64,000 bases of DNA from Raillietiella orientalis (lineage: Eukaryota): contig JAYWIR010000074.1 in assembly GCA_036172245.1 (NCBI GenBank), positions 124,001 through 188,000 on the forward strand. The letters are read 5' to 3'. Under the pieces are notes generated by a model. It was not told the origin of the DNA. It saw nothing but the letters and a program-made list of their open reading frames with translations, and ran no database searches. Both the position numbers and the translations under genes were made by a program. Positions 1-31,562 of the stretch are shown piece by piece (within the stretch, counting starts at the first letter, position 1; each line of letters begins with the position of its first letter).

Positions 1-47
1 ATTGACCGTTGAAATGTTTTTAATAAACGTCCCGGCGTATCCGGGTG
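1..47 (+). mobile_element. 3' terminus of a non-LTR retrotransposon extending upstream of the window
   Basis: AATAAA (22-27) followed by cgtcccggcgtatccgggtg, the same terminal hairpin that ends the other elements in the window. Confidence 0.8.
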
Positions 48-5152: not shown

Positions 5153-5230
5153 CGTCGTCAAAATGTACGACGCCAAGATGAAGCGGATGAAAGCACGGAG
5201 ACGAGAGCGAAGAAGTACACGTTTGCACTC

Positions 5231-9877: not shown

Positions 9878-10050
9878 TCCCTTCCCTGCCCTCCAACTTC
9901 TTTTTGTTTGTTTCTTTTTATTTTACTTTTTGTCTTATCCCCATCCCCCTTCGCTGTCGGGGAGTGCCACGCCGGGCTGCGTCCCGGTGTCCCGACAGGT
10001 CCTGTGTTTACGGCCGTGGTAGGCCTTGTACCACGCATGTAAAGTTTATT

Positions 10051-10077
10051 AATAAACGCCCCGGGCGTACCCGGGTG
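10051..10077 (+). terminator. Representative element 3' end: AATAAA plus GC stem-loop, no poly(A); 13 instances in the window
   Basis: Also at 22, 1489, 14233, 23140, 35461, 40371, 51133, 56761, 62378 (+) and 14611-14635, 25273-25306, 40952-40977 (-); function inferred. Confidence 0.7.
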
Positions 10078-10096
10078 ATAACGCCGAATCCCTTGG

Positions 10097-10113
10097 CGAG
10101 TGGACGTGTTTTT
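10097..10113 (+). promoter_or_regulatory. Conserved 5'-terminal motif containing (G/A)GACGTGT, candidate internal promoter element
   Basis: At the 5' tip of A (10097, 17516), B (11808; variant at 5231 minus), E (37378 minus) and C (23907; 63777 minus), while the rest of the UTRs diverge; absent from D. Confidence 0.5.
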
Positions 10114-11799
10114 CCTTCGCTCCCGAGTAAGTCGACAGGAAGCGGTTTTGTCTTGAATTGTTTGGTGTGGAACATCGTTGGTGTCCGATGGCAGCGATGC
10201 CTGAGGAGACCACGATGGAGGTAGGTGTGGGGGAGGCTTGCCCACCCCCACAGCCTACAGAATCAAGGGCGTCCGCCCCGGAATCGCCCTCGCCGCTCAA
10301 GGCGAGGAGCTGGTGCGCCATGGTGGCCGCGCCGAGCGTGGAAACCATGGCCGAGATGGCGGCCTACCGGGCAGCTGGGTACAAGCCCAGCTTGGTGTAC
10401 CAGGTAGGCCCTTTATTTGATGGAAAAACGGCACGCGCGTTTACGAAAGCGCTGCAAAACGCCTGAGTAAGAGAAAAAGATCTTGACGGTTTGTCCGTTC
10501 TCAGCGGAGGTCAGCGAGTCGAGGTGGTGTGCAAGGAGATCACCTTGGCTCAGACTCTGATCACCAGCCTGCTGAACGTCGACGACCGCAACATCCTGCC
10601 GGTGACGATGGACCGCTCCGTGGTGGTCCATCTCACTGGAATAACGAGCCGTATGAGTCGCTCTGCGGCAGCACAAGAACTACAGAAGTTCGGCGAGGTG
10701 CACGCGGTGTGGCCTAAGCCAACAATCTTTGAAGGCTTCAATAGCCATTTCGGAGGCCACGCTGCAGCGCGGTTAACCGTGAGTAAGGACTGTGGGCTTC
10801 CCCACAAGCTGGAGGTCGCTCTAGAGAGCGTGGACCTCTGGAACGTGGAAAAGCCCCGGTATTGCGGCTACTGCGATACCGTAGGACACCGCGAAAAAGG
10901 CCCCCACAGGTGAGTTGGACCTAAGGGCCGTAAGTGCATCCTCCTTCTCGAAGGCAAGGCTCAGGAAGTCGGGACCAAATTCTCAGAAACCCAGGAGGCG
11001 CCTCCCCTCCACCAGCAAGGTAAAGAGACACGAAGTTAGCGGTAGCGCGAGAATCCCGGAGGGGGACCTCCCACGCTCGGAATCCGTCGAGACGGCCACA
11101 CCCATGGAGGAGTGTGAGCAGGAAGGCGATGTCCTCCCTGGAGTCCCCGAGCCTGAAAAGCCCGCCCCCATGGAGAAGGGCCAACAGGTATGCGCGACCC
11201 TACCTGAGGGTGACCCGCTCGACGCGCCGTTACCCATGGAGGAGGGGGACCAGGTGCACGCAGCGCCTGACCCTCCTCCTCCACCTAGCGTCCCGCCCCA
11301 ACAGGTGGCGGACGCCGCATCCATATCTTCCCAGGAATAACACCTGGACTCGCCAGTCGCCGTCGGATTCCCGCCGCCTGTTGGAACGTCAACGGGCTGC
11401 GCGACGACGGTAACAGGCGAGATACGGCCGACACCCTGCGTGAGCTCGACCTGGCCCTGCTGCAGGAGATCCACGTGATCACAGCGGCAGACGCCCAGGA
11501 GATCGGAACGATCGCAGGGGGTCGGTTAAATTGACGTTGCGGCCTCCGCAACACCTGCGGGGTCGCGTTCTTCGTGAAGCCGGCCATGCACGCTGCCGTG
11601 AAGGGCGTGCGCTTCGATGACGACGGTCGGGTCGGTCTGCTGATTCTCAGCTGGTCCGATTCGATCGAATTGATCGACACGAATGTGTACGCCCCCAGCG
11701 GTAAAAAGGGATACAGCGACCGTACCTGGCGGCTGTAATCCCTGAAGCGCGAGTGGCTGGCGGACATGAACGTGCGGAAGGCTCACCTGATAGCGGGAG

Positions 11800-14271
11800 A
11801 TTTCAATCGAGTGCGGACGTGTTTTTCTTCGCTGTCGTCTCCGTGCTTTCATCCGCTTCATCTTGGCGTCGTACATTTTGACGACGAAGTCGACCCAACC
11901 CGAAGCTACTGAAGTTGGAGAAACAGCATAGGGATCTGCAATCGCGGAACCGACGGCCGTCTCCACTTCGTCTTACTCGCCAATAGAGAGGAGTTTTGCT
12001 GACGTTGACGCCACAGAAGCCGAAAAAGGGAAACCAGTCGACGAGTCGGAGTTGCGGGCATACGTAGCCCAAGGCTATAGACCAGCTCTCCGATATCAGG
12101 TGAGTAATCTTCTTTCTGCGCGCGACGGGAATCAGTTCAACGAGGAACTGATCCGTGTTGGCGTGCGGGAGGAGGACCTTCTCGCTATTATGCCCGTAAA
12201 AGACATGGGCTATTTCAAGGAGCGTTGCAAAGACGCTGCACTTGTGGAACGCTTGTTGCGCACCCCGTTGTCGATGCGTGGCCAGAAGGTCTTCCCGGCC
12301 GCCATGGAGGACTCATTTGTGGTGGAGATTTTCGACATCGAGTAGGAAATCTCGGATATTGATATTCGGAACGCGTTGGCGAAATTCGCCACGGTCCATG
12401 CGCTGTGGAGGGTGCGTAGCAACCTCAAGGACTTCCCGTCCATACAGAGCGGAGTCGCTGGATTCCCGCTTACAATGCCGGACCGCCGTCTGCTGCCCAC
12501 CAAACTACAGGTGAAAGACACGGTCGTTCACCTGTGGTTCGTGGGCAAAGTAAGAACGTGCGAGCAATGCGGGAAGGAGGGGCATTGTTTGGATAAATTC
12601 CCCTTTGGAAAATGCCGTTATTGCAAACTATCCGGGCACTAATTGAAAAATTGCCCGGATCTTTTGCGAAAAAAGGCAGCCGCAAAGCTCTATCTTAAAA
12701 AACAAAGCGCGGATAGATAGAAAAAATCTGCGAAAAACCTGGAGAACCCACGGCAGAAATTTCGAAAAAACGCGAGGCGGAATGTCGCCCCAAAGCAGCA
12801 GGAAACCTCGCTCGCGAAGCCCTGCGCGCCCTTTCTCGCGGCAGGGGAGCCGCAAAAGAAAGGGTGCGGGGAATCCGAGGCAATGGTAAGTCCCCCTAGG
12901 CGCAATAGCTGTCCTTCCCAAGCACGCCTGGCTCTTTCGGAGTTCGAGCAACCTGGCGGGGACGTCAATGGACAGCGGCGGTAAGGACACTTCCAGTACC
13001 GTCAGATCCATTCCTTCACCTCCTGAAGTGGCTGAGAAGCCCAAATCGGTTAGGAAGTGTTGTGCCGTGTCGACTTCTAAAGTCGGCAAAAAAAAATCTG
13101 CGTCGCGATCCAACACCGCGAAAGCAGAGAGAAATCTCACACTGTCGCAGTCGGAGAGCAAGCTCTTGACTGGCGCGGATGCCATGCCTACGAAGGGATA
13201 AAAGCCCTTCCGAAGGCAGCGTCCATGACGAGCGTGTCGGAGGCATCGAAACTACTCCCGTTTAAAGACGCGGATGGCTTCAAAGATGGCAATGGAGCTA
13301 AATCTCCTTTTACGGCGCCACGCGAAGTGACGAACCGCAATGAAGTAAAGAAAACTTCAGCAAAGGTCCCTCGTGCAACTGCGCGTGAGCACGCTGAAAA
13401 CGCGCGCGCCGGGAAAGCAGCCGTCACCGAAAGCGATGCTCTGGATATGGAAAAAGACAACAGGACAGTTCGCTGCTCCCTCTTGCTTGGAAAGAAGCTG
13501 TGCTGCTTTTCGTTTACTGGGGTTTTCAGTGCAACGAGCGTTGGCATCGTGACTCCGGGGGACTTGCGTATGCGAACTGCGTTGGGTTCGGATCGACGGA
13601 GTGGATTCCGCACCTACTTCTGGACTGCGGTGTCCCACAAGGACTGTGGCGTAGGCTGGCAACAGCACTAATGCATCCCGTGGACGCCGCAAGAGACTTG
13701 CTGCGACGATTCTTCACGCCGAGCGGGCTGTCACTAAGCGCAAGGATTGCAACCATCGGTTGCAAACGCGCGATAGTTTCCGTCGGCCAGGCGTTGGTAA
13801 TCAACGGACAGCACCAAGAGGTAATCAGCAAAGCATCCTTCTACATGGGAGCTTCCGCTAGATGGCCTCATTTGACAGAGGAGACAAAAAGGAATCTCGC
13901 CGCAATACACTGCCGGTTTACACACCCTTAGCAGCGGACAACCCGGTGATCATTGCCCTACCCTCCATAAACAAATTTTGTATTTTCTTTTTACACCTGC
14001 GTCCCCATAGGCTCCGAAGCATTTTAGGTGCTCATCGTTTAAATCCCCGTGAGTACGGAGCCTAACCAAAAACCCGTTAACCTTCCCTCGAGGTTTTGAT
14101 TTTTGTTTGTTTCCCCTCATTCCTCCCACGCTGCGAGCGGTTTGTTTACCAGGCCTGCGTGCCAATAACTTTTCTATGTTCTCTGTCGTTTTGTTGGTTG
14201 AGGACATTGTCTCTGACCAGTTTATTATTATTAATAAACGCCCCGGCGTGACCGGGTGATAAATTTCAATC
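11800..14271. repeat. 9-bp TSD ATTTCAATC (11800-11808 and 14263-14271) flanking B2
   Basis: Exact direct repeat; the same 9-mer in reverse (gattgaaat 5231-5239) borders B1. Confidence 0.9.
11809..14262 (+). mobile_element. Family B copy B2: internally deleted element (decayed ORF1 joined to the extreme C-terminus of ORF2; no EN, no RT)
   Basis: 11809-13470 is colinear with B1 (5230-3575); it then jumps to LLFVYWGFQCN...PHLLLDCG (13500-13931); AATAAA 14233 plus hairpin; perfect TSD. Confidence 0.9.
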
Positions 14272-15994
14272 TCCGTCTGCTAACAGGTGAGCCAGAAACA
14301 CAAGAGAACGCGATGAACGAGTTGTGCGTCGCCATGCGTGCGGGCAACTTGTTCGAGGGTGAGAGGGGAATGGTCCGCAGCAACGACCACGTCTTCCTCG
14401 ACGCTGACCTGTCTTCACGGGTCGGCAAACAAAGGAGGGTTGCGTCGACGTTGTCGGACCATTCCCGGTTGATTTTCAAGATGCGGCTTCGCGACAAGAG
14501 ACCGCCATCCAGGGATTGGCGTCTGGCGAGGGAGTGGACGCGACTCCCTGGTGCGAAGGAACACCTTCGCGAATACCTGAGAGGCGTCACGCTCCGGAAT
14601 CTCCATTGAAACCCGGGTGCGCTGGGACGTTTATTCTCACGAATAAACCCATACAAACAGTGACTGGACCAGTAGTCCAGCCACGCCCTGTAAAGATATA
14701 GTTTGCCTGGCTACCGGTGCGCAGGTCGGAGCGGGCAACCTCGGCATCAGAGGGGAGGGGGAACGAAACAAAAAGAAAACAAAAAATAAACAAAAATCAG
14801 GGAGGGAGCGGGAAGGGATCACAGTCTGCTGGGTGGGTCCGTCATCCTCTTGAAGATGCCGGCAAGCTGTTTCTGCGTGTGTGGTTTCAGATGGGGCCAT
14901 CGATTCGCCACCCTGAGGAAACGGGCGGCATACCCGTTGGCATCCCTGTCGCTGGATCCTTCCGTCGCTTTGCTCCATGCCACGACGATCCCCCGTAGGC
15001 AGCACAGGGCTGCAAGCGAGGCCGCTGGAGGCAGGGCGTCACGGACAAAGAGCGTCTCTGATGTTGCCTCCGGGGATCCCCAGGGCTGCGGCAAAGCGTT
15101 CTCACAAGTGACGGAGGGCAACACAATCCACTAACAGGTGGGGGAGGTATTCACTCTCCCCGCACCTGACACAATTAGGGTTGACACCCCCCCGCGTCCA
15201 GAGGTGTCGGCGGGCGTTACAAGGAAGCCCCCAATAAAACACCAGCAGTGCCGACTGTTGCCACTCCACAATGAGGGTGCGCTAGTCCATGAGCACCGGG
15301 GGCCACTCGAGATGTTCCTCTGGAACATCCAGTTGCTCTCCCCATCGCAACAGTCCATTTGGGGTGGTCCTCGGGGTCGCAGCGTTAGTGAGCTGACCCG
15401 TTTTCCAATCCCCGATTTTCTTTGCCCTGCTGGCGATCTTGACAGTAACCTCCCATTGTGCCGCTACGTCGCTGATCAGATGTTCCCGTAGGGAGAGCAA
15501 TACCGCAGCAAGGGAATGTCTTTGTGCCCACGCTCTCCTTCGGGGATTCTCGATGATTTCTCGGAGCGTGCGGTGGGCATGAGACCCGAACAGAGCTATT
15601 CGCTCGTGTTGCGGGATCTGCTCCTGAATCATCGCTCACGTGCGGACGGTTTCCTGCAACCAGGCAGGACCGTTCACGGTGCGTACGAGGATCCGGTCCG
15701 AGTTGTTCTTCAGGAGCTTGGCCGCCCTCCGAAGTTGAAGTCCGCAGTGGCAGATGGGGATTCGAAGTGCAAAGTAGCACGAGAGTCTCGCATTGCCGGT
15801 GGCCCGCTCGACGAGGAGTCGTCCAGGGAGGCACCAAGGGGTGCACCAATTTTCTGCCATAAAGGCAAAAACTCGGAACTGGAGCTGTAGCTCCAGCCGC
15901 TCCAACGTCAGGAGGCCCAGACCACCATCCCGACGAGGAGCGCACAAGTCCGAAAGACGGACTCGGTGCCTCCCTCTGCCCCAAAGGGCGATCC

Positions 15995-17320
15995 TCAGGA
16001 GGTCCTTCGTCCTCTTCTTTGACTCCGCTGAGGGGTGCAAAAAAAAAGCAAGGGGCGAAGGAGGCGGGCCGCAAACGCGTTCCACGCCGCGGTCCGTTCC
16101 TGCAGGGAGACCCTGCCGTCATGGAACGGGCCGATAGCCGCCTGAGCCTTCCGAAGACAGCCGGACCACGCTTCCGCAGGGGAGTAATCCCCCAACGGCA
16201 CACCAAGGTACTTGAAGTACCTCACCGTGGGGATCCCCAATCGGACCCAGTCCTGCTGCCCTACCCACGCCGCTCCGACTGGCATTACGGACGACTTCGC
16301 CCTGTTCACCGTCAGTCTGGTTCCCCGACTCAGCAGGTCGAAGAACTCCTCGTCCGCCGCAGCCGGTGTGGACATAGGCAGCAGCAGCAGAAGGTCGTCC
16401 GCGTACGCCGAAACCGCAGGCGTACCGGAACAATCGCACGGCAGGTGCGCCAGAGTCTCCCTGTACGCTCTCAGCAACAATTCGAAATAGGCGCTGAAGA
16501 GCAAGGGGCTGAGGCTGTCTCCCTGCCGTATGCCGCGTCGCACCGGTACGCCGTGCTCGGTGGATCTTCTAAAAAAAACATTAATAAGCGCGTCGCGCCA
16601 GCTGGAGCGCAGGTAGACCACCAAAGAGGCCGGGAAGCCCAAGCATTCCAGAAGAACCAAAAGGAGATTCTGGTCGACGCAATCGAATGCTTTATGCAAA
16701 TCGACTGCGACCGCGAGGTCTCCTCTCCCCTTTCGACCATCCCGTCCCCCACCGACGGCCGCACCGGAATTCCGGTTGCTTATTATGCTCCTTCCTTGTT
16801 GGAGCTCTAACCATGTGGAAGCGTAAAACAGGTTCGCCTCCATACTTCGCCCGGGAACAGCATATGTCTGTTCCGAGCTGATGAAGATGTTGGCGACCCG
16901 TCCCAAACGCTCTGCCCACAGCTTGGCTAGCAACTTGGCGTCCGCATTCACTATTGTGATGGGACGCCAGTTTTTCATGCTCCTAAGGTCTCCTCCCTTA
17001 GGGAGGAGCCGCACCTTTGCTGAACGAAACGAGGTGGGAACGTCACCTGTTCCGCGGATCGGCAAGGTGAGCTGATGTACCAGGAGAGTGAGCTCTGCCG
17101 CTAAAGTTTGATAAAATTCCGCAGGCAGGCCGTCCTCCCCTGGAGCCTTTCGCCTTTTGAGCTCTCCGATGGCCGAGATGATCTCGCCCATCGTGAAAGG
17201 CTCGTCGAGGTTCCTTTTCTCCTCCTCCCCGATTGCTTGAGCACCTTCCGGAAGCAGGAGTCGTGAGACAGCCTGCTCCGGAGGCGCCCTGGCGTACAGG
17301 GAGGAGTAAAATTTACTCAC
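15995..17320 (-). pseudogene. Element E reverse transcriptase core (frameshifted at both ends)
   Basis: KAPGEDG, WRPITIVN, VDLHKAFD, GIRQGDSLSP, YADD, KYLG. Confidence 0.88.
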
Positions 17321-17498
17321 TATCCAGGTTTCTCAGTGGGAACTGAGTGCTCCCGGCCCTTGTTGTCCAGCAAGCTGGCCGACCCGGATTGCCAGGCTTG
17401 CCTCTCGGCTCCCGCTCGATACTCTGCTATCCTGCGCATGTCGGGGGTTCTCGCGTAACGTCGGGCCTGAAGATAGCGCCTTTCGTTACGCGGCCCCT

Positions 17499-20400
17499 CC
17501 CCAAATCCCTCTCCTCGAGAGCGGACGTGTTTTTCCGACGCTCCGCGAACGAGCAGAGGAAAGCGGTTTTTGTTTGGTTCAGTGTGAGGTTTATCACATC
17601 GTTGGTGTTCGATGGCATCGCTGCCAGAGGACAAAACGATGGAGGTAGGCGTGAGGGAGGCTAGCCCCCTCCACGACCTACAGAATCAGGGGCATCCGTC
17701 CCGGAATCGCCCTCGTCGCCCAAGACGAGGAGCTGGAGCGCCATGGTCGCCGCGCCGAGCGCGGAAACCTTGGCTGAGCAAACGGCCTACAGGGCCTCCG
17801 GATATAAACCATCCCTGGTTTATAAGGTAGGAAACCTGTTCGACGGTCGCACCGCGCGTGCCTTCAGCAAGGCACTACAGGAATTCCCCGTGTGTGAGGA
17901 GGATTTTGACGGCCTCGACGTACTCAGCGGGGGGCAACGCGTGGAGGTCTTCTGCAAAGACGTAGCCCTAGCGCAGCGCCTCATCAACACCCCGCTGAAT
18001 GTGGCTGGCCGAAAGATCCTACCCGTTAGCATGGACCGCTCCGTAGTGATCCATCTCACGGAGATCACGAACCGCATGACGCGCTCTGCGGTGAACGCGG
18101 AGTTGAAAAAATACGGAGATGTGCACGCGCTGTGGCGAAAGCCAACCATTTTTGACGGCTATAACAGCCTCTTTGGTGGCCAGGCAACAGCGCGTGTCAC
18201 TGTGAACGAGGGTGCTGAATTACCCCACAAACTGGAGGTCGGGTAGGAGCCCGTCGACCTCTGGTACGTAAGGAAACCCCGCTATTGTGGCTACTGCGAT
18301 GCAGTAGGGCATGTGCGCAGGCGGTGCCCGAATATCGAGTGCCACTTGTGCGGGGAAAAGGGACACGTCCGTCGTGTGTGCCCTAAACGCCCCATTCCGG
18401 TGCCACCTGCTGCCAAAAAGGCACAGGTGAAAACGATGAATAAGGTCGAAAGACCTCATCGCGCGAATATCCGGCCCCAGAAGCCTTCCCCTCCTCCATC
18501 AACCCAGGCGGCAGCGGAAAAAACCGCGAAACACGCGGGCGAGGAAGAAGGATGGACGCTGGTAAAGGCCAGAAAAGAACCCAAAAAGGGTTCACAAGAG
18601 AAGGCGGAGAAAAAGTCGGTCGCGAAGGCGAAAAAACCTGGTCCGCGATCTAAAACTCTCCGCGAGTGCTCGGTAGCACTGGAGCGCATCAACGTTCCCG
18701 AGGCTGCCACCCGGGGCGACGAGCCTCCCCTCGTCGTTTCCGCCGCGCCCGAGGTTCGCGACGGCGAACCCTCTGTTTGCACAGAGGGTGAGACGCGCGA
18801 CGCGCTCGCCGCCGGCGAGGACGCCGCCTTCGCGAAGGCGGCGGAGGAGCTCGCGGCCACGCAGGCTGAGCGTGAGAACCCCTCGCGCAAGGCCGTGCGA
18901 AGGCCGGCTCCGCCGAAGCAGGCCCCCGCAGGTGATTGCGATCTGGGGGCCGGAAGTGCATCCTCCTCCTCGGAGGCATCCCCCCGGAAGACGGGACGCA
19001 AGTCCCAAAAGCCGAGGAAGCGCCTCCCCTCCACGAGCGAGGAGGAGAAGCTGGAAGTCGCCGGCAGCGTGGGAATCCCGGAGGGGGAGCTCCCACGCGC
19101 GGAAGCCGTCGAGCAGGACACCCCCATGGAGGAGGGTGAGCAGGGGGGCGAAATCCCCCCTGCCGTCGCGGACCCTGAGGAGCCCACTTCTATGGAGGAG
19201 GGCCAGAAGGTAGGCGCGACCCCACCTGAGGGTGAACCGCCCGACGCGCCGTCACCGATGGAAAAGGGTGGCCAGGTGATAGAGTAACCTGTCCCTCCTC
19301 CTTCACCTAGCGTCCCGCCCCAACAGTTGGCGGACGCCGCACAACCGATTTCCAGGAATAACACCTGGGCTCGCCTGTCGCCGTCGAATCCGCGTGGCCA
19401 GTTGGAACGTCAACGGGCTGCGCGACGACGGCCACAGACGAGATACGGCCGACACCCTGCGTGACTTTCACCTGGCCCTGCTGCAGGAGATGCACGTGAT
19501 CACCTCGACAGACGTCCAGGAGATCGGAGCGATCGCGGGGGGTCGACTGTATTGGCGATGCGGCGCCCGCAACACCTGCGGGGTCGCGTTCTTCGTCAAG
19601 CCGGCCATCGACGCTGCCGTGAAGGGCGTACGCTTTGATAACGACGGTCGGGTCGGTCAGCTGATTCTCAGCTGGTCCGACTCGATCGAATTGATCGTCA
19701 CGAACGTGTACGCCCCGAGCGGAAAAGGGGGATACAGCGACCGTACCAGGCTACTGGAAACCCTGAAGCGCGATTGGCTGGCCGACACGAATGTGCGGAA
19801 GGCACAAGTGATAGCTGGAGACTTCAATCTCCGTCTGCTATCAGGTGAGCACGAAGCACAAGAACGCACGGCCAACGAGTTGTGCGCTGCCATGCGCACG
19901 CGCAACTTGTTGGCAGACGCGGAGGGAATGGACCGCAGCATCGACCACTTCTTCGTGGATGTCGACCTGTGCTCACGGGTCGGCAAACGGGGAAAAGTTG
20001 CGTCGACGCTGTCGGACCATTCCAGGATCATCGCCGAGGTTTGCCCGCGCGACAAAGGACCCCCGTCCAGGGCGCGGCGGCTGCCTGGGGACTGGACGCT
20101 GCTCTCAAGGTGCGAAAGAACACCTTCGCGAATTCCTGAGAGGCGTCACCCTCCGCAGTCTCCAAGACTAGTACCTCTTCAAGGCCACGGTCCGCGAGTT
20201 CTGGGAGGAGTTTCCCCTGCACCGCCTGCCCCCCGGATTCGGGGAGGGAGCTCGGAACCATCGGGCTTATCTACAGGCCCGCCGGTGCGAGAGGACCCCG
20301 AATGTCCGTCGCCTAGCGGAATATCGAGCCGGGGCCGAACGCCAAGCCTGGCAATCCGGGTCGGCCAGCTTGCTGGACGACCAGGGCCGGGAGCGATCCG

Positions 20401-23180
20401 CCCCACCCGCGATCAGGCACCTCGTGCGACGTTACTACTCCTGCCTCTACGCTAGGGCACCCCCAGAGCGGAACGCATCGCGGCTCCTGCTCCCGGATGG
20501 AGCCCCGGCAATAGGGTAGGAGGAGAAGATCAGCCTCGATGAGCCTTTTTCTACCGGTGAAATTCTCGCCGGTATTAAAAGGCTCAAGAGGCGAAAGGTG
20601 CCAGGGGAGGACGGCCTGCCTGCGGAATTCTTTCAATGTTTTGCGGCAGAGCTGGCACCCCTGGTGCTTCAGTTGACCGGGCTGATCCGAGACGAAGGCG
20701 ACGTTCCCGCCTCGTTTCGGTCAGCCCGTGTGAGGCTCCTCCCGAAGGAAGGAGAGCTGAGATCCTTGGGCAATTCGCGTCCGATCACAATGGTGAATAC
20801 GGACGCCAAGCTGATCGCTGGACTGTGGGCTTTGCGTCTAGGACAGGTGGCAGACTCCATAATTTGCCCGGAGCAGACGTACGCTGTTCCCGGGCGAAGT
20901 TAGGATGCCAACCTGTTCTTCGCGAGCACATGGTTCCATGTGCAGCGCTGCCTGAACGACACAGGGGGAAAGATTGGCAACCCCACTTTGGGACCGCCAG
21001 CTGGGCTAAGAATGGATACCCGGGCTGGGAAAGGAGCCCTAGCAATCGCGGTCGATCTCCACAAGGCGTTCGACTGCGTAGACCAGGAGCTACTGTTGGA
21101 GCTCCTGGGTCGCATGGGCTTCCCACCCTCCCTTCTCTCCTACCTGCGCTCATGCTGGCGCAATGCCATTGTCAACATCGTCTTTTCCAGCCAACAGGTG
21201 TACGGCGTGCCGGTGCGGCGGGGCATACGGCAGGGCGATAGCCTCAGTCCCCTGCTCTTCAGCACCTACTTTGAGTTGGTGCTGAGAGCGTACAGGGTGA
21301 CTTTGGCTGCCCTGCCCAGCTCGTGCCCCGGCACGCCCGCCGTTGCAGCATACGCCGACGATCTTCTGCTCATGTTGCCCATGTCCGCACCGGCAGCCGC
21401 AGTCGAGGAATTCTTCGACGTGCTAAGTCGTGGGACTAGACTGCGGGTAAACAAGGCGAAGTCGGCGGTCGTACCGGTCGGTGCGACATGGGTCGGACGG
21501 CCTGACTGGATCCTCTTGGGGATCCCCACGGCCAGGTACCTGAAGTACCTGGGTGTCTTGTTGGGGGACTTCTGCCTCGCAGAAGCCTGGTCAGGTCGTC
21601 TCCAGAAGGTAGAGTTGGCAATCGGCCCGTTCCTGGAAGGCAAGTTCCTTCTGCCGGAACGGGCCGCGGTGTGGAACGCCTTCGCAGCTCCCATTCTCCG
21701 CCCCCTGCTTTTTGTGTGCCCCGTCCCCCGTGAGGTTAAAAAGAGGACAAAAGACCTACTCCGCATCGCCCTCTGGGGCAGCGGGAGGCCACGTGTGCCT
21801 CTGGATGATTTATGCGCTCCTCGTCGAAACGGCGGTCTCGGCCTCCTGACGCTGGAGCGCCTGGAAATACAGCTGCGATTGCGCACCCTCGCCATCGCAG
21901 CAAAGTCATGAAGCACTTCTTGGTGCGTTCCGGCCCGAATCCTCGCCAGCCGTGTGTCCAGGACGCAAGGACTCTTGTCGTACTTTCTGTGCTCCAGCAG
22001 GAAGGTGAGAAGATGCGGCCTTCTTCTTAAGCGCACGGAAGCCCTGATCAGAGACAACGGCTGGACGGTATGCAGCCCCGCCAACTCCTCCGCCTGGCTG
22101 AGGAATCAGTTGCGACGTGGGCCAAGCTGAACCTCCAGACTTCCCCGGACTGGAACCGCCTGCGATTCGGCCCCAACGCCCGCTGCACACTGCGGACTAC
22201 TCTGGAGTGTCCCGCCAGGAGCACGTGGGCAGAGACCACCTCTCTAGCTTCGACCCTGTTCTTCCTCCGGAGGGCTTTATCCAGCGGCCGCAAGCCAAAG
22301 TGGCAAGTCTCCTGCCGAATCGCAGTCAAGGAGAAGAAGATGAGCGGTTGGACCATGGGAGAACAGGCGGATGCCACGACCCCGAGTGCCCTCCCTCGTG
22401 GACTTCGTCGATTTGGCGAGCTGCTCGGCATCCCGACGGATGACCTGAAGTGGCCCCCAATACTGATAGGATCCAGGCTTCTCCCCCTGAAGTGGCAAGA
22501 GTCGGCGATGCTGCTGTTGCACTGGGGTCTACCCTGCAACGCGCGCCGCTTCCACTGGACGCGGGGAAGTGTAAGGCCTGATTGTGCCAGATGTGGGGAG
22601 CGGAAATCGCTCCCCCACCTACTAGCTGACTTTGCTGCCCTACAACCCCTGTGGGAACGGTTCTGGACGACCTTCGGGCTCCCAACAGGCAGCGCGCCCG
22701 GAGACGTTCTTCAGCCCCTCTTCGTGCGGGACGCCCTGCATCCCGCCGCAGCCCTCGCAGCCCTCTGCTGCATCCGGGGCATCGTGGCGGCCTGGAGCGA
22801 CATTCGCGACGAAGGAGTGGATGCCAACGTGAGGGATGTCAACCCGTATGCGGTCTGCTTCATGCGGAGAGCAGCGAGATGGCCCCATCTGGGAAACATA
22901 AAGATGGACCTAGAGGGCATGCTGCGTAGGATGGACCCTCCTCTAAGTGGAACGTGATTCCCTCTTCTCCCTCCAAACTCTTTTTTGTTTTCCTTATCTT
23001 TATTTTTCTTTTTGTTTTGATCCCTATCCCCCTCCACTGCCGACGAGCGTCGCGCCGGGCTGCGTCCCGGCGTCCCGGCAGGTCCGGTGTTGTGTGGCCG
23101 TTAGTGGGGTCTCGTACCACGTTTATGTAGAGTTTTTTCAATAAACGCCCGGGCGTACCCGGGTGACAACCCCAAATCCC
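17499..23180. repeat. 11-bp TSD CCCCAAATCCC (17499-17509 and 23170-23180) flanking the inner A copy
   Basis: Exact direct repeat; removing the insert restores host E protein LPAGFGEGPRNERRYLQAR on the minus strand. Confidence 0.9.
17516..23169 (+). mobile_element. Family A (second subfamily), full-length uninterrupted copy of about 5.65 kb with stops and frameshifts
   Basis: 5' end cgagagcggacgtgttttt; ORF1 pieces 17612-19287 with CCHC knuckles; EN from about 19361 (WNVNG, LQEMH, GDFN, SDH); RT 20940-21911 (YADD); C-terminus 22070-22957; AATAAA 23140 plus hairpin. Confidence 0.9.
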
Positions 23181-25403
23181 GCAGGTAGGCGATGCAGGGG
23201 GAACTGGTCGCAGAACTCCTGGACCGACCGCTTGAAGCGGTCCCAGTCGTGAAGTGTCTGCATCCTGAAGCTCCGAATAAACGCGCGGAGGTGCTCCTCC
23301 GCGTCGGGAAACTTCAGCCAGTCCCCGGGCAGACGCCACACTGACGAGAAGGGGCCCTTGTCGCGCGGACGCACTTCGAACATGATCCGACCATGGTCCG
23401 ACAGCTCGGATGGTACCTTGCCGCGCCTGCCCACCCGAGAGCATAGGTGCTGATCAAGGTACACGTGATCGATGCTGCTTTCCATGGCCGTGTTCCCGGC
23501 CAACAAGTTGCGCGTGTTCATTTCTGCGCACAACTCGTTGACGCGCTCGTTCAGTGTATCCGGCGCACCTGAAAGCAGGCGCAGGTTGAAATCACCTGCG
23601 ATCAGGTGCGCTTTGCGAGCTCCTGCATCGGTCAGGCAATCGCGTCTCAGGGAAAGGTAGAATTCCCTTCTTGCCTTCGCCCTCAACGCGTTGTTTCCGC
23701 TAGGAGCGTATAGGTTGGTGACGACCAGGTCGATAGAGTCGGACCAGCTGAGAGTCAGCTGACCGACGCGACCTGCGTCATCGAACCGAACGTCCTTTAT
23801 TGCGGTCTCGATGGCTGGCCGAAGCAGGAAGGCGACACCGCTTGATTTCACGGTGCCGCAACGCCACAACTGCCGCCCACCCGAGATCCGTTCGATCTCT
23901 TGCGCTCGTACAGTGCAGACGTGTTTCCGCGTCTATCCGCGCCAACGATCGTGCAACTTTGTGCCTGCGTTTTTGCTCGCACTTGTGTGTTTCTGTGCAA
24001 TCTGCCAAGTAGCATAGTGCAACATGGCGAGTACACAGGATAGTGTGGAGGAGCAAGCCACTGAATGCACTTCAGCTGCACTTGAAGTGGCCGCATCCTC
24101 CGTAATGGTTTCCTCGCCCCCGGTGAGGAGTTACGCCGTCGTTACCTCCCAAAGACCAGGACCCTGCGATGCGGAGTTCCAGGCATATGTGTCATCAGGA
24201 TACATGCCTGCACTCCGTTATAAGGTCAGTGGGCCACTTAACGGGAGAATGGGTCGTGAGCTCAATGATGAGCTCGTCCGGATAGGCGTTTGCGAGGAGG
24301 AACTCCTTGCCATGATGCCTGCCGGCAGGATGGAATATACGAAGATTCGGTGCAAGAACGCAGCTCTTGTGCAGCGCCTTCTCCGTACGCCGTTGACCAT
24401 CAATGGAAAGGAAGTCCTACCTACCGCGATGGACAACTCTTTTGTCGTTCAATTGTGCGACATCGAACCGGAAATCTCCGACCGCGATGTCGTAAGTGTG
24501 CTGGCGATGTTCGCCGCCGTGCACGCTCTGTGGAGGAGGCCAAATCCTCTAAAGGATTTCCCCTCTGTCCACATTGGACAAGCCTCCGCAAGGATCACCG
24601 TCGCGAACAGGCGTGTTGTGCCTGAGCAGCTGCAGGTGAACGGCACGGTCGTTCACCTGTGGTTCATAGGCCAGACTCGCGCGTGCGAGCAGTGCGGCAA
24701 GGATGGGCACCGAATTAAAAAGTGCCCCTCTCCAAGATGCCGCTATTGCAAAGATTCCGGGCACGAAATCAAGAAGTGCCCGGTACTTGCAAGAAAAAGA
24801 GCCGCAGCGGAAATTCGTCGGGTTCAAGAGACCAGTGCACGAAAAGCCGCAGCGGCAAATAAAAAACGTCGTCCGCAAACACTCGAAAAAAACCACGAGC
24901 GATCCGCGGATAAAAAGAAAGCATCCCCGCCCGCAACGCCCCGAAAGGGGAAAGTCACGGCGGGGAAGCCAATTAAAAAGGGGCGCGAGGGTTTGACGCC
25001 TGCCGTGCCTTCCCTCTCTGCCTAACTCGCAGGCACCTTTCTGAGCCTGGAACCAGGAAATCTCCGTAACACCCTGGAGGGAAAGGTAGGAAAACAGGAA
25101 GATCGCAACAGTGCGAAGACTTCTTGCCCCGTTCCGTTGTCCCTTCCGAGTTCCGGACAGCCCCACTGCAGCGCAGGCCCCACTGCAAAGGCTACAAAAG
25201 CCGTAAAAAGCAGCGTCGCGACGAGCAAAAGCACGCTGCATGCAGTAGCCCCATCGCCGACTCGGCAGGTTTCCCCAAGTCCCACAAGGGGTGGGGTAAG
25301 TTTATTTTTCTATAAAAATACAAAATTTACATTCGCACGCTCACTCACTCAATACAATTATTTTGCACTTGGGGGTCCTTGGGTTGCACTAGAGTTCTGC
25401 TAT

Positions 25404-28400
25404 TCAGGGGGGAATTCCAGCAGGATGGTCCCGGGCGTCGTCCTGGATCCTCTTCAGGATGAATCGGTACGTCCAGGCGTGGATCTTCCCGCAGTTCCTG
25501 ATGCCGATTTCCCTCTTCAAGAGCCCTTGTAGGATCTCCATTGGTGGTGCGGCTCTCCTGGCTTTCCTCATTTTCCACCACCGCACAAGTATGGCGGTGA
25601 TGAAGAGGGCTATGGTCGTCCTCTCCATGGGATTGTAACAGGGAACATTACCATCCCCATGAAACATCCCGGCGAGGATCTCCATAACGGACTTGTTGGT
25701 AAGTCCTATGATCCTTTTCAGGATCAGCCAGTCATGCAGCAGTGTGGGACACGTCAAGACGTGAAGTCTCGTGTCGTCGTCTCCACATGCTGCGCAGTCT
25801 CGGTCTTCCCGTCTTCCTGTAAAGTGCTGCAATCGGGACCCACTCTGGATTCCTCCGTGATAAAACATCAGGAGGTCATCCTGGGTGCCCGGCGGAAGGT
25901 CACTCCTCCAGAGAGTCGTGCCGATCGCTAACAGGTTGAACCGTTCACTCCCGTAGCGTTCGGTGGCTTCCTGGAGGGCACTGGTGTCACGGTCGTTTTC
26001 TTGGATAAACCTTCGGAGGTTTGTTCTGGTTACCCTCGACCATGCGAAGTCGTTGTGGCTGAACCACACTTCGCGGGTCCTGTGGGTAAACCTTCCTAAC
26101 ATCATCTCTGTATACCGAAGTATACGTGTTTGATGTAGGTAGCCTCCTCGCCTCCACTCCTGGATTTGCAGTAGGGTAACTCTGGACCGCTGGTAGATCC
26201 AGCTTCTCGTGTCCGGCGGGACAGAAAGCAACCAAGGGATCACCAGGATGGACTCGTCCTGCCAGAGTTCCCTGCTTCGCGGCACGATCTTGATTTGGTG
26301 CTTCCGCACCAGCCGTTGCTTCCTCCTCCAGGTCGGGTCGATTCTTATCCATTCCCCTACTTTGCCTAGCAGCGCAGTCATCAGGCCTTTCGAGTTGTTA
26401 AGCAACAACGCGTAGGCCCGGTGCGCCGCATACGGCCAGTCATCGCAGTAAGTGGCCATGTCCAGGATGTGTCGCGTATCCATGATTTCCATGGAATGTG
26501 CAAGCGACTTCATCCCGGAACCGCCTTCTTCCCTGGGACGACACAGGGGTTTCAGTCGGACTCTTGGGCGATAGTGGCCCCACAGTGTTTTTCTCTGCAG
26601 CTTGTCGAACTCCCTCGTGGTGTCCTTGTTCATCCTCGCGAGGGCCGCCCCGAAGAGCACTTTCGGAAGGAGTACTCCGTTCCATATGTTTGCCTTTCGC
26701 TTCATCCCAAGGTCCGTTCGGGTGTACTTGGCTGCTTCCTTGGCCGTTTTCCCCAGGATTTCCTTCCACAGCAGCTTCGACGCAGAGCCGTCGCCGATGT
26801 AGACTCCCAGGTACTTGGCCGTGTCCACCGTACGGAATCCACTACCCGTTAGAGTGGAGAGATCCAGTATTCCGACGGAAAAAAGCTGGCTCTTCTGAGA
26901 ATTGATTTTTAAGCCCAAGCCCTGTTCCATCAGGTCCACCACATCCAGAAACGCACGCTGATTATTCTCTCCCTTGATGAAGAAGAGTAGATCATCGGCG
27001 TATGCCAGATGGGTAAGACGCTGGCTATCGATGGTAATCCCGCTTAGTCGTCCGCTCTTCTCGATAAAGGACGACAACGCCTCCATATAGATGACGAACA
27101 GCATCGGACTTAGCGAGTCGCCCTGTCGGACTCCTCGTTCCATCCTGATTGCTGCCGTCTCCTGGCCGTTGATCTTGATCCGGCAGTACTGGTTCTGGAA
27201 TACCGCCCTCACGAAGTTGCTGAAGTGTTCCGGAAGCCCTAGCTTCTCCAGAACCTTCAGCAGCATCCCGTGGTCGATGGAGTCGAAGGCCTTCTCCATG
27301 TCAGTGAACACCAGCACCAGGTTCTCGCCGACGTATCGACTGAGTCCAACAGTGGCCTGGGCACACTTGACATTGTCCGACATGTGTCGTCCTGGGACTG
27401 CACATGTCTGGACCGGAGATATCAGCCTCGACATGATTTTGCCTAAGCGGTTGGACCAGATCTTCGCCAACCACTTGGCATCGGAGTTTAGAATCGAGAT
27501 TGGCCTCCATTGGGCGATCTGGGTAGAGTCGCCTCCTTTCGGCAGCAATCTTATCCGACTCTCGTAGAAGGACTGAGGTAGTCTGCCTTCTTCCCGGATG
27601 CAGAGGGTCAACTGGTGGAACAAGCGCAGGTAGGCGTGCAGGTACCGCTGATAGTGCGTGATGGGTACACTGTCAGGGCCCGCTGCCACGTCCTTGCGAA
27701 GTTGCCCAAACGCAGTCTTCACCTCTTCTTCGGAGAACTCCTCCTCCAGTCTGTTCCGCTGGAGGTCGTCGGTCCTTTTCTCGAGATAGCTCAAGAAGGC
27801 CTGTTGACTAGAGCGACACAGCTGTTGTCGCCTGAAGTGTTTCGTGTAATGCCTGTGAAAGGCATCCACGATGTCCTCAGACGAGTGTCGCTTTTGGCCG
27901 TCGTACTGGATGCAGAAGATATCTGTTGCCAGATTTCTCTTCTCCAGCACGCCGACTTCCCCTTTTATGTTATTGAGGACGTACCGACTCTCGTACTGAT
28001 CGAAGTACTTTGAAAGGGAGCGATCTTGGATATTCAGATCCCGGTACGCCTCTTGCCTCAAGCGCCTATCCCCGAACTGCATGTTCGCAAACAGGTGTAT
28101 CCTGTGTTTCAGGCTGTCCCAGTCGGCGACTCTTCGGATTGTTGTTGCCCTCAGAATCGTCTCCAGGACAGCCTGATGTCCGGGATGGGTTTCGAACCAG
28201 GCGGGCATGCTGATGAGCGCCGCCCTGATGCCGTGCCTCCGCCGAGGATTCTCCGTTCTTAGGGAAAACCGCACCAGGGGGTGATCGGACACCGTGGTCA
28301 TAATGTCTCGAAAACCCTGGATGCGATTCCCAAGTTCGGTGCTGTGCAGGACGTGATCGATCGGCTTGTGACTTGCAGTTCGCCACACCAGTCCGAACTC

Positions 28401-28922
28401 GTCGGATAACCGCCGATACGCCGTCTTTTTTCTGGCGTCTTCGGAGTGAGTGATCTCATCCAATATGTTGAGATCGCCAGCAACAATCACGACGTCCTTG
28501 GAAGCAACCTTTTCACGGAGTGCTGCATGCAGCGCCTCCGCACAACGATGTTTTAGCCTGTGCGGTCCGTACACGTTCACCAGGATGAGGTGAACAGTAG
28601 CGGACCAGGTGAGTCGCACGCCGATGATTCGTCCGGGTTGGGGACAGAACACTTCCAGAATAGTGGGGGCCAAGTTGTTCTTGATTAGGACCGCCACTCC
28701 CTGCGTGTTCCGTTCTCCCTCGCTGACGAAAATCTGCCCGTTGAATCGCCGTTCCATTTGCTGACTAATGTCGAGACCCATCTTGTGGGTCTCCTGCAGG
28801 CACACTATGTCTTGTTGTGCGATGGTCCGCACAATCCTTCTTCTTTTTCCCTGGTCGACCATACCGTTTACATTCCAGGAGGCGATGTTCAGCCTCCTGG
28901 CGGTCGATAGGGAAGAGGCCAT
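25404..28922 (-). CDS. Intact ORF2 of D0: APE endonuclease, reverse transcriptase and C-terminal CCHC (1172 aa from first ATG)
   Basis: WNVNG, LQETH, NVYGP, GDLN, IDH, SDH; AGPDS, WRPISIL, DMEKAFD, GVRQGDSLSP, YADD, KYLG; CAACGDDDTRLHVLTC. Confidence 0.93.
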   Translation of the reverse strand: MASSLSTARRLNIASWNVNGMVDQGKRRRIVRTIAQQDIVCLQETHKMGLDISQQMERRFNGQIFVSEGERNTQGVAVLIKNNLAPTILEVFCPQPGRIIGVRLTWSATVHLILVNVYGPHRLKHRCAEALHAALREKVASKDVVIVAGDLNILDEITHSEDARKKTAYRRLSDEFGLVWRTASHKPIDHVLHSTELGNRIQGFRDIMTTVSDHPLVRFSLRTENPRRRHGIRAALISMPAWFETHPGHQAVLETILRATTIRRVADWDSLKHRIHLFANMQFGDRRLRQEAYRDLNIQDRSLSKYFDQYESRYVLNNIKGEVGVLEKRNLATDIFCIQYDGQKRHSSEDIVDAFHRHYTKHFRRQQLCRSSQQAFLSYLEKRTDDLQRNRLEEEFSEEEVKTAFGQLRKDVAAGPDSVPITHYQRYLHAYLRLFHQLTLCIREEGRLPQSFYESRIRLLPKGGDSTQIAQWRPISILNSDAKWLAKIWSNRLGKIMSRLISPVQTCAVPGRHMSDNVKCAQATVGLSRYVGENLVLVFTDMEKAFDSIDHGMLLKVLEKLGLPEHFSNFVRAVFQNQYCRIKINGQETAAIRMERGVRQGDSLSPMLFVIYMEALSSFIEKSGRLSGITIDSQRLTHLAYADDLLFFIKGENNQRAFLDVVDLMEQGLGLKINSQKSQLFSVGILDLSTLTGSGFRTVDTAKYLGVYIGDGSASKLLWKEILGKTAKEAAKYTRTDLGMKRKANIWNGVLLPKVLFGAALARMNKDTTREFDKLQRKTLWGHYRPRVRLKPLCRPREEGGSGMKSLAHSMEIMDTRHILDMATYCDDWPYAAHRAYALLLNNSKGLMTALLGKVGEWIRIDPTWRRKQRLVRKHQIKIVPRSRELWQDESILVIPWLLSVPPDTRSWIYQRSRVTLLQIQEWRRGGYLHQTRILRYTEMMLGRFTHRTREVWFSHNDFAWSRVTRTNLRRFIQENDRDTSALQEATERYGSERFNLLAIGTTLWRSDLPPGTQDDLLMFYHGGIQSGSRLQHFTGRREDRDCAACGDDDTRLHVLTCPTLLHDWLILKRIIGLTNKSVMEILAGMFHGDGNVPCYNPMERTTIALFITAILVRWWKMRKARRAAPPMEILQGLLKREIGIRNCGKIHAWTYRFILKRIQDDARDHPAGIPP

Positions 28923-28935
28923 AAAAGGGGAAGAC

Positions 28936-30721
28936 CTATTTCTTGGCCTTCCTGAGCTTCTTCTGTCTGAGAGAGCGTGCTCTTCCCGACAATGAAGAAG
29001 CAGCGGGCTTCTCGCTGCCGGCGTCACTCTCTGTTCCGGTGAGGTCGGTTACTTCCGCCTCCTCCGTCGAGTGTTCGGCCCGCTCGATCGGTTTTCGAGA
29101 TAGCGTCTCTATCTGGACCTTGGCGCAGAAGTTCGCCTTTACGTCGAGAAGCTGTTCCTCTAGCTTTTCGCGCTCGGTGACCTCCACAACCTGGTTGACC
29201 TTCTCCTGTGCATTGCAGATCTTTTGCAAGATTTTCTCTTGCTGGAAACCGCTCTGCACCTCTAGGACTACATTAGCCAGTGATGCCAACTCCTCCGTAG
29301 ATTGCAGGGCCTCCTGTGACACCGGAGTGGCTTCGGCTTTTTCTTCTTCCGCGCCTTCCTGCGCTACCTCCATCTTCTCGCCTTCTTGCTCTTCACCTTC
29401 CAGGATAAGAGGGGTTACTTGCTCCTTGACGAGCATCCTCCTCTTTCCTTTCTTCCCTACCTGTATGAAGCCGTCTTCCGATACCGGGACGGCTTCTTTC
29501 ACCTTTTTCGGGCTTTCTGCCTTCTGAGGCTGTTCTGCCTCCTTGGTGTTTCTCTCTCACGGGAGAGAGACCTCGAATCCTTCTGCAGTTTGCAAACTCC
29601 GGACAGCTCCATTTGGCATGTCCGTGTTTCTTGCAGAAGGAGCACACCTCCGGCTGCGGGCAGTTTCGGACTTGATGTCCTACTTTGCCGCAGCGGAAAC
29701 AACGACACGTTGGGCAAGCGCCGGCCCTGTGGCCGAACTGCTTGCACCCGGTGCAGAATATCGGCTGTTGCCGGTAACGCACGTTCACTCCCTGGGATTG
29801 CTCGTCATGAACGGCTTATCCAGGGATCACAGCTCCCTCTTTCAACTTCATTTTGGCGATCATGTCGCCAGAATATATTTTTCCAGAGAAGTTCTGGAAT
29901 TCAAGGTCCAGAACTTCCCCATACTGCTCCAAAAAGTTCCACACCGTTAGTTGCAGTGTGAGGATGGAGATGCCGTTCAGAAAGAAGGTTGTGTATGGCA
30001 TCTCGCCAACACCACAAACCATCCTCCCTTGTATATTAATCCCCTTCTGGATCAATCGCTCTCTAATCTCTTCACAGTCTGTGAAGACTGTGAACCCGTT
30101 GTTTGCTGGTATGAAAGCTTGTATGCGATCAAAATTCATGTCCGTTTTATCGAGGCACAGATACACCTCCCTGATATTATTGAACTTGATCAGCCCAGTC
30201 TTGAAAATGATGGGCTTCACATTCGGCCCTAACTCCACGATCGGTCGATCCACCTTTTGGACTTTACCGCATAGCGGCTTCCCGAATTTTCTTGGTGGGT
30301 GGACACTCGCTTGTCCAGCCGCCACCGACACATAGGAGAAGGGCTGCGCCGCCGCAGCCGAACAAGATGGCGTCTCGCCCTGAACCGCGTGGACGCCCGC
30401 GGGTCCTGCCTGGGACGCCGCCGCTCCGAGCGCAACCCTCGACGTCGCCACCTTTGCCGCCGCGGGCGGCACCCTCGGCATCGCCGCCGCAGGCGCGACC
30501 TTCCCCGCCGCGGGCACGATCCTCGGCGTCGCCGCCGCGGGCACGACCTCCGCCGTCGTCGCCGCGGGCACGACCCTTGGCATCGCCGCCGCCGGCGCAG
30601 CACAGCCCGCCGCGGGCGCGATCCTCGGCATGCCTGCCACCGCCTCGCCGTTGCCGCACGTTACCTCCATGGCTTCCATGGGGGACGACGGTCTCTCCAC
30701 TCCTCTTCTAGGTGCCTGCAT
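28936..30721 (-). pseudogene. D0 ORF1 with three CCHC knuckles; stop at 29816 and a frameshift near 29500
   Basis: Matches the intact D3 ORF1; CTGCKQFGHRAGAC, CFRCGKVGHQVRNC, CSFCKKHGHAKWSC. Confidence 0.85.
30450..30635 (-). repeat. Degenerate GC-rich tandem repeat in D ORF1 encoding PR(I/V)(A/V)PAA units; also at about 45805-45990, 51443-51630 and 57073-57225
   Basis: Repeated gccgaggatcg(t/c)gcccgcggcg-like units; D3 lacks one 27-bp unit relative to D0-D2. Confidence 0.75.
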
Positions 30722-31562
30722 CCTGGCAGCTGGTCCTGCTGCACGAAACCACTGCAGGTCTTCCGCCGCGATCTCCTCGGCGCTTCTTTTCTAGTTTCGT
30801 TTGGAAAACTTCCCCTCTCCGGGCACACACGAGCACAATGAACTGATTAACTTGTCAAGCGCACAATACTTCGAGCCGCGGGGCAAGTTCACCGACTCGG
30901 CAGGAGAGGAGCGATCTCCCGACTGTCAAGAAGGTGACTCCGTTGCCGCCTTTTAAAGGCGTAGCGAAAGCAACGCTTCCAGAGAACGCAGCGAAAATCC
31001 CGGAGGTTTCCGCAACTAATGTCGCGGAAGCCTCCGAAAATCGCGAAGGCGAATGGAAGGTTGTGGAGAGGAGGAAAGAAAAATCTCCAAAGAAAGCTCC
31101 GCAACCTCCATCCCTCAGCTCTTCCAAAGGAAAAAGCAGTCGCGCGAATACGAAAACACGCGCGGCTTGTGACTCTTCCAAGGAAAAAGCCAACGCCTTC
31201 AACGCGTGCAAGTCCGCTTCTGTGACCGCCGAGAAGACCATTCCGGTGCAATCGGACGGATGCAAGCGCACATCGATCGTGCGAGCTTCAGACTTCGCAA
31301 AGGAGTCCGATAACGCAGCTGAACGACGCGTAACTCGCGCGGGAGCGAGCGCCCGCAGGGCTGAAGCCCTGAGGCGTGACACACTCGCCGCGGAACGGCG
31401 AGTGCTCACCCCGGAACCCACAGGTTCTGCACCCGGGGAGGAGCACCCGATTACGTGCAGCACAGTTGAGGCCGGTGGCGACCGCGCCCGCCAGCCCGTC
31501 GTGCTGCTTACTGCCCGCTCGCCGGGTGAGGCGAGCACCACGGCCTCGCTTTCCCAGCCGTG

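Follow-up and report, generated by a model that had tools for sequence, protein, structure and literature searches.

The 64-kb window analyzed here (64,000 nucleotides of Raillietiella orientalis contig JAYWIR010000074.1, positions 124,001 to 188,000; all coordinates below count from its first letter) is filled with long interspersed nuclear elements (LINEs) that encode an endonuclease and a reverse transcriptase (RT) and lie nested inside one another. All 13 LINE 3′ ends in it close with a compact terminal module, in which an AATAAA hexamer is followed by a GC hairpin and a short A-rich tail, and none of them carries poly(A). We read this module as a stringent-type 3′-terminal cis element of two co-resident L1-like LINE lineages, in which AAUAAA would serve as the elements' own polyadenylation signal, and we put the probability of this reading at roughly 0.55. 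Stringent-type recognition is used here as defined for L2, CR1, and R2-like LINEs; it has also been proposed for some L1-clade LINEs. The module represents no new mechanism, since an L1-style hexamer is joined to a stringent-style end, a kind already known.

Twelve 3′ ends of the second open reading frame (ORF2) were located by tblastn with the two intact ORF2s of the window, and a 13th lies in an element (e22) truncated by the left edge of the window. The module follows every one of them, with AATAAA in 12 of 13 (Table 1). Its length is 29 to 31 nt in all nine copies of one lineage and 37 to 38 nt in all four copies of the other, which we call D; the hexamer lies 23 to 32 nt before the element end, and the tail behind the stem measures 3 to 4 nt in all 13. 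The non-D consensus reads AATAAA CGCCCCGG(G) CGT(A/GA) (C)CCGGGTG ANAA, and the D module reads AATAAA CTTA CCCCACCCCTTGTGGGACTTGGGG AAA. This agrees with an earlier note on this DNA, which had described AATAAA, a stem-loop, and a short tail without poly(A) at all 13 ends, had quoted the hairpins at 23146, 14242, and 1500 together with that of D, and had pointed out one copy (C2) with AAAAAA in place of AATAAA. The note's list of tails (ATAA, ACAA, AGAA, and AAA) was too short, because GCA (e22), TAAA (40401), TCAA (14606), and AAAA (1519 and 62415) occur as well. Because C2 is a DNA copy of another element, C1, and all four D copies carry one target site duplication (TSD) sequence, the 13 ends stand for about 9 independent lineages and not for 13 events.

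The ends of these elements are exact. In the reconstructed nest, TSDs of 9, 11, 11, 15, and 16 bp directly adjoin the tail in five lineages, and it is because they abut the tail that the ends can be called exact and free of copied poly(A). The two parts into which each insertion splits its host ORF2 overlap by 3 to 5 aa. The TSD of C1 is mutated in its 3′ copy at C1 itself and intact next to the duplicate C2, and the empty site of C1 is present in a DNA contig of a public sequencing run, where 23894 is followed directly by 35491. No copy (0 of 13) has a run of more than three As in the 40 nt after its end, and poly(A) between the 3′ untranslated region (UTR) and the TSD, as found in relaxed-type L1, is present in 0 of 13. 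The nick sites of the five defined targets are not A/T-rich, and the targets show no complementarity to the tail. Loose ends at LINE 3′ termini were found in none of the DNA contigs on 17000 to 36000 among the matches listed.

The proteins of both lineages are L1-like. The two intact ORF2s (25404 to 29048 on the minus strand, 1,214 aa; 31530 to 35135 on the plus strand, 1,201 aa) each contain Exo_endo_phos (PF03372) followed by RVT_1 (PF00078). Pfam matches below the cutoff were obtained for zf-RVT at the ORF2 C terminus (E value of 0.049) and for zf-CCHC in ORF1 (E value of 0.03), and CX2CX7HX3-4C motifs are visible at both ORF2 C termini. The combination of AP-endonuclease and RT domains, TSDs of variable length (9 to 16 bp), and 5′ truncation, for instance in copy 51-1519, which begins at ORF2 aa 792, identifies LINEs of the AP-endonuclease (APE) type. 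Among solved structures, human LINE-1 ORF2p is the best match of both ORF2s (E values of 5e-57 and 1e-38), and R2 is far weaker (3e-28 and 2e-12); we therefore call the elements L1-like, a label based on these structure matches. Between the two lineages, D and the non-D group formed by families A, B, C, E, and F of the earlier note, ORF2 identity is about 27%. In the protein collection, the D ORF2 has distant homologues (identity of 31% or less over 30% of the query), and Atlas gave only generic RVT_1/Exo_endo_phos clusters.

The terminal module also shows signs of constraint. In a comparison of seven copies (21 pairs; e22, C2, and D left out), the last 30 nt are the best-conserved part, with a mean pairwise identity of 0.785 versus 0.53 to 0.59 for the end of ORF2 and for three segments of the UTR farther upstream. 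Such conservation of the 3′ end over the remainder of the element, seen between diverged families, is one of the features expected of stringent-type LINEs. The spacing from hairpin to end is fixed at 3 to 4 nt, and D reaches the same layout with an unrelated sequence. Further upstream, all non-D copies aligned (that at 23055 and six others) contain a 5-bp hairpin with an invariant CUGCG loop, 105 to 138 nt before the end. This hairpin covaries: 85.7% of 35 cells pair, two pairs are changed on both sides, and the covariation score of 0.305 compares with 0.111 for shuffled alignments, with 2 of 500 shuffles reaching 0.305 and slid controls reaching at most 0.162. The compensatory changes convert CCGGG/CCCGG to CUGGC/GCCAG, and GGU/ACC was also found. 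Judging from this pattern of substitutions, the CUGCG hairpin may be a better candidate for the protein-binding element than the terminal hairpin. The 150-nt 3′ UTR folds beyond shuffles in C1 (z of −3.6), D (z of −2.9), and copy 1489 (z of −4.3), which are intact or young, and also in copy 14635. A middle 3′-UTR hairpin was seen as well, at 1431 to 1466 (+), 14650 to 14690 (−), and 35392 to 35418 (+), with stems GGCUGGA/UCCAGCC or GGUUGGGA/UCCCAACC; it beats shuffles strongly in three copies (z of −5.5, −4.6, and −3.8) and is weak in four others.

Starting from the exact ends and the conservation observed here, we infer the events on the RNA, namely polyadenylation, RNA binding, and the choice of the start site. 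AAUAAA, with UGUA and U-rich sequence upstream, would act as the element's own polyadenylation signal, and the transcript end would be set at or just past the hairpin, 23 to 32 nt after the hexamer. The ORF2 protein would bind the structured 3′ UTR, that is, the terminal hairpin and probably also the CUGCG-loop hairpin. Target-primed reverse transcription would then begin at the ANAA/AAA tail, and therefore poly(A) would not be copied; any poly(A) would stay uncopied, or just its first one or two As would be copied.

The sequence context of the hexamer fits a genuine polyadenylation signal. In 11 of 13 copies, TGTA occurs in the 60 nt that precede the hexamer, compared with 0.097 expected per 60 nt, at sites 13 to 50 nt before the hexamer, and the U-rich GTTTATT or GTTTTT precedes it. 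The same features could mean that the module is mainly a 3′-end-processing signal, in which AAUAAA and the hairpin fix the cleavage site inside the element and RT sees the RNA 3′ end or a short oligo(A) instead of the hairpin; poly(A) would be absent through very short A tails or priming at the first As. The hexamer is kept in both unrelated lineages (12 of 13 copies), which agrees with this, as do its distance of 23 to 32 nt from the end, which is the usual distance from hexamer to cleavage site, the upstream TGTA in 11 copies, tails whose final A(s) are preceded by NA, and a terminal stem without covariation. However, an RT guided by an A tail alone should leave variable A runs, and all 13 tails are 3 to 4 nt long. 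Moreover, with no A/T-rich nick among the five defined targets, annealing between primer and tail is not evident, and the structured UTR farther upstream, with its covarying hairpin, suggests recognition of the RNA by a protein. On balance, we regard a pure processing signal as rather unlikely.

Beside the hexamer, AATAAAC and a GTTTATT located 0 to 36 nt before it make up an inverted repeat at 1478 to 1495, 10044 to 10057, 14220 to 14239, 14629 to 14648 (−), and 35418 to 35467. This arrangement places AATAAA on both strands and could form a weak A-U hairpin holding the hexamer. It also accounts in part for the excess of AATAAA in the window (37 found versus 11 expected).

Several results weigh against a stringent-type element, beginning with the terminal stem. 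A hand-gapped structural alignment of this stem in eight copies, without C2, has pairing in 56 of its 60 stem cells; the average over column shuffles is 55.5 cells, and 868 of 2,000 reach 56. RNAalifold recovers the hairpin; its covariation term is +0.21, and one pair is changed on both sides, from G-C to A-U in copy 1489. When compared with dinucleotide shuffles, only one of 11 tails (23140) falls below a z of −2, the rest ranging from −1.7 to +0.9. The eight independent non-D tails, set against all 24-nt windows of the stretch, gave fractions of 0.0004 to 0.61, and the tails of 1489, 14635 (−), and C1 are no more stable than 18 to 61% of random 24-mers of the window. Over 150 nt, the 3′ UTRs of copies 10051 (z of −1.1), 23140 (z of −0.2), and 40371 (z of +0.7) fold no better than shuffles. 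Beyond the fold itself, no extra copy of either tail core was found elsewhere in the window, nor any tail-sharing partner or tail-only element there. A scan of metagenome contigs for relatives with a protein pattern from the ORF2 alignment gave 57 pattern matches with 0 confirmed, and a scan with a DNA pattern of the tail gave 0. Finally, all counts come from one 64-kb window of one genome.

The evidence that the terminal hairpin exceeds sequence conservation is thus weak, and the earlier note's statement that its pairing survives sequence change, in a hairpin common to the non-D families, is not supported, with pairing at the level of shuffles and one compensatory pair. Support for pairing through change comes only from the A-U pair in copy 1489, from three copies whose stem has lengthened by paired changes, and from the D hairpin, unrelated in sequence. 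The tails are still much more structured than the 25 other AATAAA sites (median of −0.3 kcal/mol). Broken pairs were found in the two oldest copies, 14635 (−) and 40371. In the C1 stem, TT for CC gives U-G wobbles that are later than the C1/C2 duplication, as C2 keeps CC; since these stem changes and the AAAAAA of C2 both arose after the duplication, they represent decay and not selection or the evolution of an active element.

It might be argued from these results that the terminal 30 nt act as primary sequence, in the form of single-stranded RNA or DNA, for example in second-strand synthesis, and that the hairpin arises incidentally. Because CCCGGG equals its reverse complement, a direct repeat of it mimics a stem; the stem columns are nearly invariant, and their shuffles pair equally well; and shuffles of the same composition fold almost as well. 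A look-alike at 23276 to 23310 (+), antisense of an ORF2 and not an element end, combines AATAAA, a hairpin of −17.9 kcal/mol, and GGGAAA by chance, and it shows how readily hairpins form in the G+C-rich DNA of this window (G+C content of 53 to 62%). Nevertheless, D gains the same shape from unrelated sequence, copy 1489 exchanges the loop-closing G-C for A-U and keeps the stem around what is now a UAAA loop, and the stem lengthens in pairs, from CCGG/CCGG with a 5-nt loop to CCGGG/CCCGG with a 4-nt loop. We consider an explanation by primary sequence quite improbable.

The weakest explanation, that poly(A) was present at insertion and was later lost or shrunk, has nothing in its favor beyond the general shortening of A tails with age and was rejected as most improbable, since it is contradicted by TSDs that directly follow the 3- to 4-nt tail in five lineages, including C1 and D with their intact ORFs, and by the single length class of all 13 tails. 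Two other candidates were rejected. A histone-like stem-loop has no match in Rfam, whose covariance models hit no 3′ end at E values up to 1, and the downstream element of such a stem-loop could not travel with a retrocopy. UGUAA was dismissed as the operative signal because TGTAA is found in some copies only, and because the TGTA sites, 13 to 50 nt before the hexamer, are too far from the 3′ end.

The earlier note's interpretation is supported in part. Its proposal that a defined 3′ RNA element and not poly(A) sets the start of reverse transcription fits the TSD-bounded ends, the fixed spacing of 3 to 4 nt, and the conserved last 30 nt, and in that part it may well stand; its argument from covariation of the terminal hairpin finds no support, and covariation is found in the CUGCG hairpin instead. 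A more specific arrangement starts from the fact that two lineages about 27% identical in ORF2 have the same layout (AAUAAA, hairpin, and two or three As) in one genome. The hexamer and hairpin might form one composite signal, by which the host 3′-end machinery makes LINE RNAs ended by the hairpin with no or very short A tails and RT primes on this native end, so that these LINEs would be intermediate between poly(A)-dependent and structure-dependent ones. We offer this speculatively and think it doubtful.

Comparison with known LINEs shows where the module stands. The stringent LINEs of the L2 clade (eel UnaL2 and zebrafish ZfL2-1 and ZfL2-2) resemble the elements here: they lack poly(A), their reverse transcription has a defined start, and a conserved stem-loop forms their very 3′ end. 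Those elements end in short tandem repeats, e.g., (TGTAA)n (PMC3747384), whereas here a single A-rich tail of 3 to 4 nt is found and AATAAA stands right before the hairpin; the proteins here are closest, among solved structures, to L1 ORF2p. In zebrafish L2, the stringent ORF2 protein binds its cognate 3′ stem-loop, and it is the loop that the cognate protein discriminates (PMC4176376). Cross-family mobilization, which the earlier note had raised, may be possible; by analogy with ZfL2, the differing loops (CGUA, CGUGA, CGUAU, CGUCA, and UAAA) call for caution.

The earlier note had also assigned poly(A) to L1 and 3′ stem-loops to the L2 clade, and this division is incomplete. A monocot L1 lineage that includes LINE1-1_ZM has a conserved 3′ hairpin showing compensatory changes, the stringent type has been proposed for Chlamydomonas L1-1_CR as well, and of 15 green-algal L1 families, (A)n is the terminus of 2, other repeats such as (CAA)n or (TAA)n close 8, and 5 have no terminal repeat, so that 13 of 15 do not end in (A)n (PMC3472496). 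These monocot and algal elements share with ours an L1-like ORF2, a 3′ end conserved above the rest, and a predicted hairpin, but LINE1-1_ZM and L1-1_CR still end in poly(A) and the elements here do not (PMC3472496). Unlike the monocot hairpin, with its compensatory changes (PMC3472496), the terminal hairpin here lacks a covariation signal, and no partner among short interspersed nuclear elements is found in the window. All vertebrate L1s examined in PMC5381506 end in AATAAA and a poly-A tail. That account describes several features in common with the elements here, namely an ORF2 with APE and RT domains, the 3′ AATAAA, a 3′ UTR containing T-rich and C-rich tracts, and 5′ termini conserved within a genome (PMC5381506); the vertebrate (relaxed, as in mammals) L1s differ in that poly(A) is found in 0 of 13 copies here and that the five defined targets here are not TT/AAAA-like. 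In the Zepp/ZeppL clusters of green-algal L1s, LINEs insert into existing copies and thus form LINE-only nests and tandem arrays (PMC8226300). The nest in this window is like them in layout; Zepp and L1-1_CR end in (A)n (PMC3472496), unlike the elements here. Keyword searches of the literature found, among the papers listed, no described LINE that combines AATAAA, a terminal hairpin, and no poly(A), which is not proof that none is in print; Repbase was not covered and the supplements of PMC3472496 were covered by keyword only.

If the stringent-type reading is true, these elements would be a clean example for the debate on whether the L1 lineage began stringent and later relaxed to poly(A), with junctions defined by TSDs, a canonical AATAAA kept, and poly(A) not copied. 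Besides, the two natural tail variants (non-D and D) and the loop variants in one genome are usable for tests of cognate versus cross-family mobilization.

Table 1. Terminal modules, target site duplications, and CUGCG-loop hairpins in the window (MFE, minimum free energy)
Feature	Position	Strand	Details
Module of full-length element 17510-23169	23140-23169	+	AATAAA 23140-23145; perfect 8-bp hairpin 23146-23165, CGCCCGGG-CGTA-CCCGGGTG; tail ACAA 23166-23169; RNAfold −16.1 kcal/mol, z −3.0
TSD of 17510-23169	17499-17509 and 23170-23180		11 bp, CCCCAAATCCC; host ORF2 split at aa 305-307
Module of element cut by window edge (e22)	22-50	+	Tail GCA; adjoins 5′-truncated next element at 51
Module	1489-1519	+	Stem UUCGGA/UCCGGG, loop UAAA, tail AAAA; sole compensatory pair (A-U)
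Module	10051-10081	+	Tail ATAA; another element's 5′ end 11 nt later
Module of internally deleted 2.45-kb element 11809-14262	14233-14262	+	Tail ATAA; TSD ATTTCAATC at 11800-11808 and 14263-14271
Module of old host element M (14606-37380 including nested inserts)	14606-14635	−	Decayed hairpin, MFE −2.4; tail TCAA; TSD GCTCCGGAATCTCCA at 14591-14605 and 37381-37395
Module of C1 (23906-35490, intact 1,201-aa ORF2, D nested inside)	35461-35490	+	Tail AGAA; TSD ATCTCTTGCGC at 23895-23905, mutated copy at 35491-35501
Module of host element H	40371-40401	+	Tail TAAA; a G-to-A change breaks one stem pair; inverted-duplication boundary 40401/40402
Module of C2, DNA duplicate of that of C1	40948-40977	−	AAAAAA at 40977-40972 instead of AATAAA; tail AGAA
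Module of intact D (25270-30888)	25270-25306	−	AATAAA, CTTA, bulged hairpin CCCCACCC/GGGACUUGGGG, tail AAA; 16-bp TSD CCTGCCGAGTCGGYGA at 25254-25269 and 30889-30904
D module, tandem unit 1	51133-51169	+	
D module, tandem unit 2	56761-56797	+	
D module, tandem unit 3, most diverged	62378-62415	+	Tail AAAA
Upstream 3′-UTR hairpin	23055-23070	+	CCGGG-CUGCGU-CCCGG, invariant CUGCG loop; about 110 nt before end
Homologous CUGCG hairpins (inner 16 nt of each range)	9969-9990, 1387-1408, 14147-14168, 14711-14732 (−), 35345-35366, 40284-40305		

Each of the five TSD-defined insertions lies in another LINE copy, and the window showed no gene other than those of LINEs. The nest has also been reshaped by duplication. 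The segments 25254 to 36039 and 40402 to 51185 form an inverted duplication of 10.8 kb with 94% identity; C2 sits in the inverted duplicate arm of the C1 region, and each arm holds one D copy. Other inverted segmental duplications pair 3573 to 7068 with 10098 to 13468 and 23697 to 25254 with 62430 to 63987, the identity of all three pairs ranging from 89 to 94%. A LINE 3′ end sits precisely at the boundary 40401/40402, and a LINE 5′ end at the boundary at about 10098. From 45532 to 62430 (+), three D elements lie head to tail, and the same 16-bp sequence separates the units as surrounds the single inverted D, giving the order duplication-D-duplication-D-duplication-D-duplication, with a third unit about 12% diverged. 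This array could have originated by repeated insertion into one target or by unequal exchange between the duplications.

Two further head-to-tail junctions were observed. At 50/51, the tail directly joins the 5′-truncated start of the next element with zero spacer, and at 10081 to 10093, the tail is followed by 11 nt, CGCCGAATCCC (9 of 11 identical to a TSD elsewhere), and then by a full-length 5′ terminus. These junctions may have arisen by template switching or by insertion at junctions already present. The 2.45-kb element at 11809 to 14262 (+) retains the full-length 5′ terminus, the ORF1 region, and only the last ~150 ORF2 codons, with a normal tail and a 9-bp TSD, and is either a trans-mobilized deletion derivative or the product of a deletion after insertion. 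The full-length non-D elements have a common conserved 5′ terminus with GGACGTGTTTTTCC or a close variant, at 17510 to 17540, 10093 to 10120, 11809 to 11835, 23906 to 23930, and 37355 to 37380 (−).

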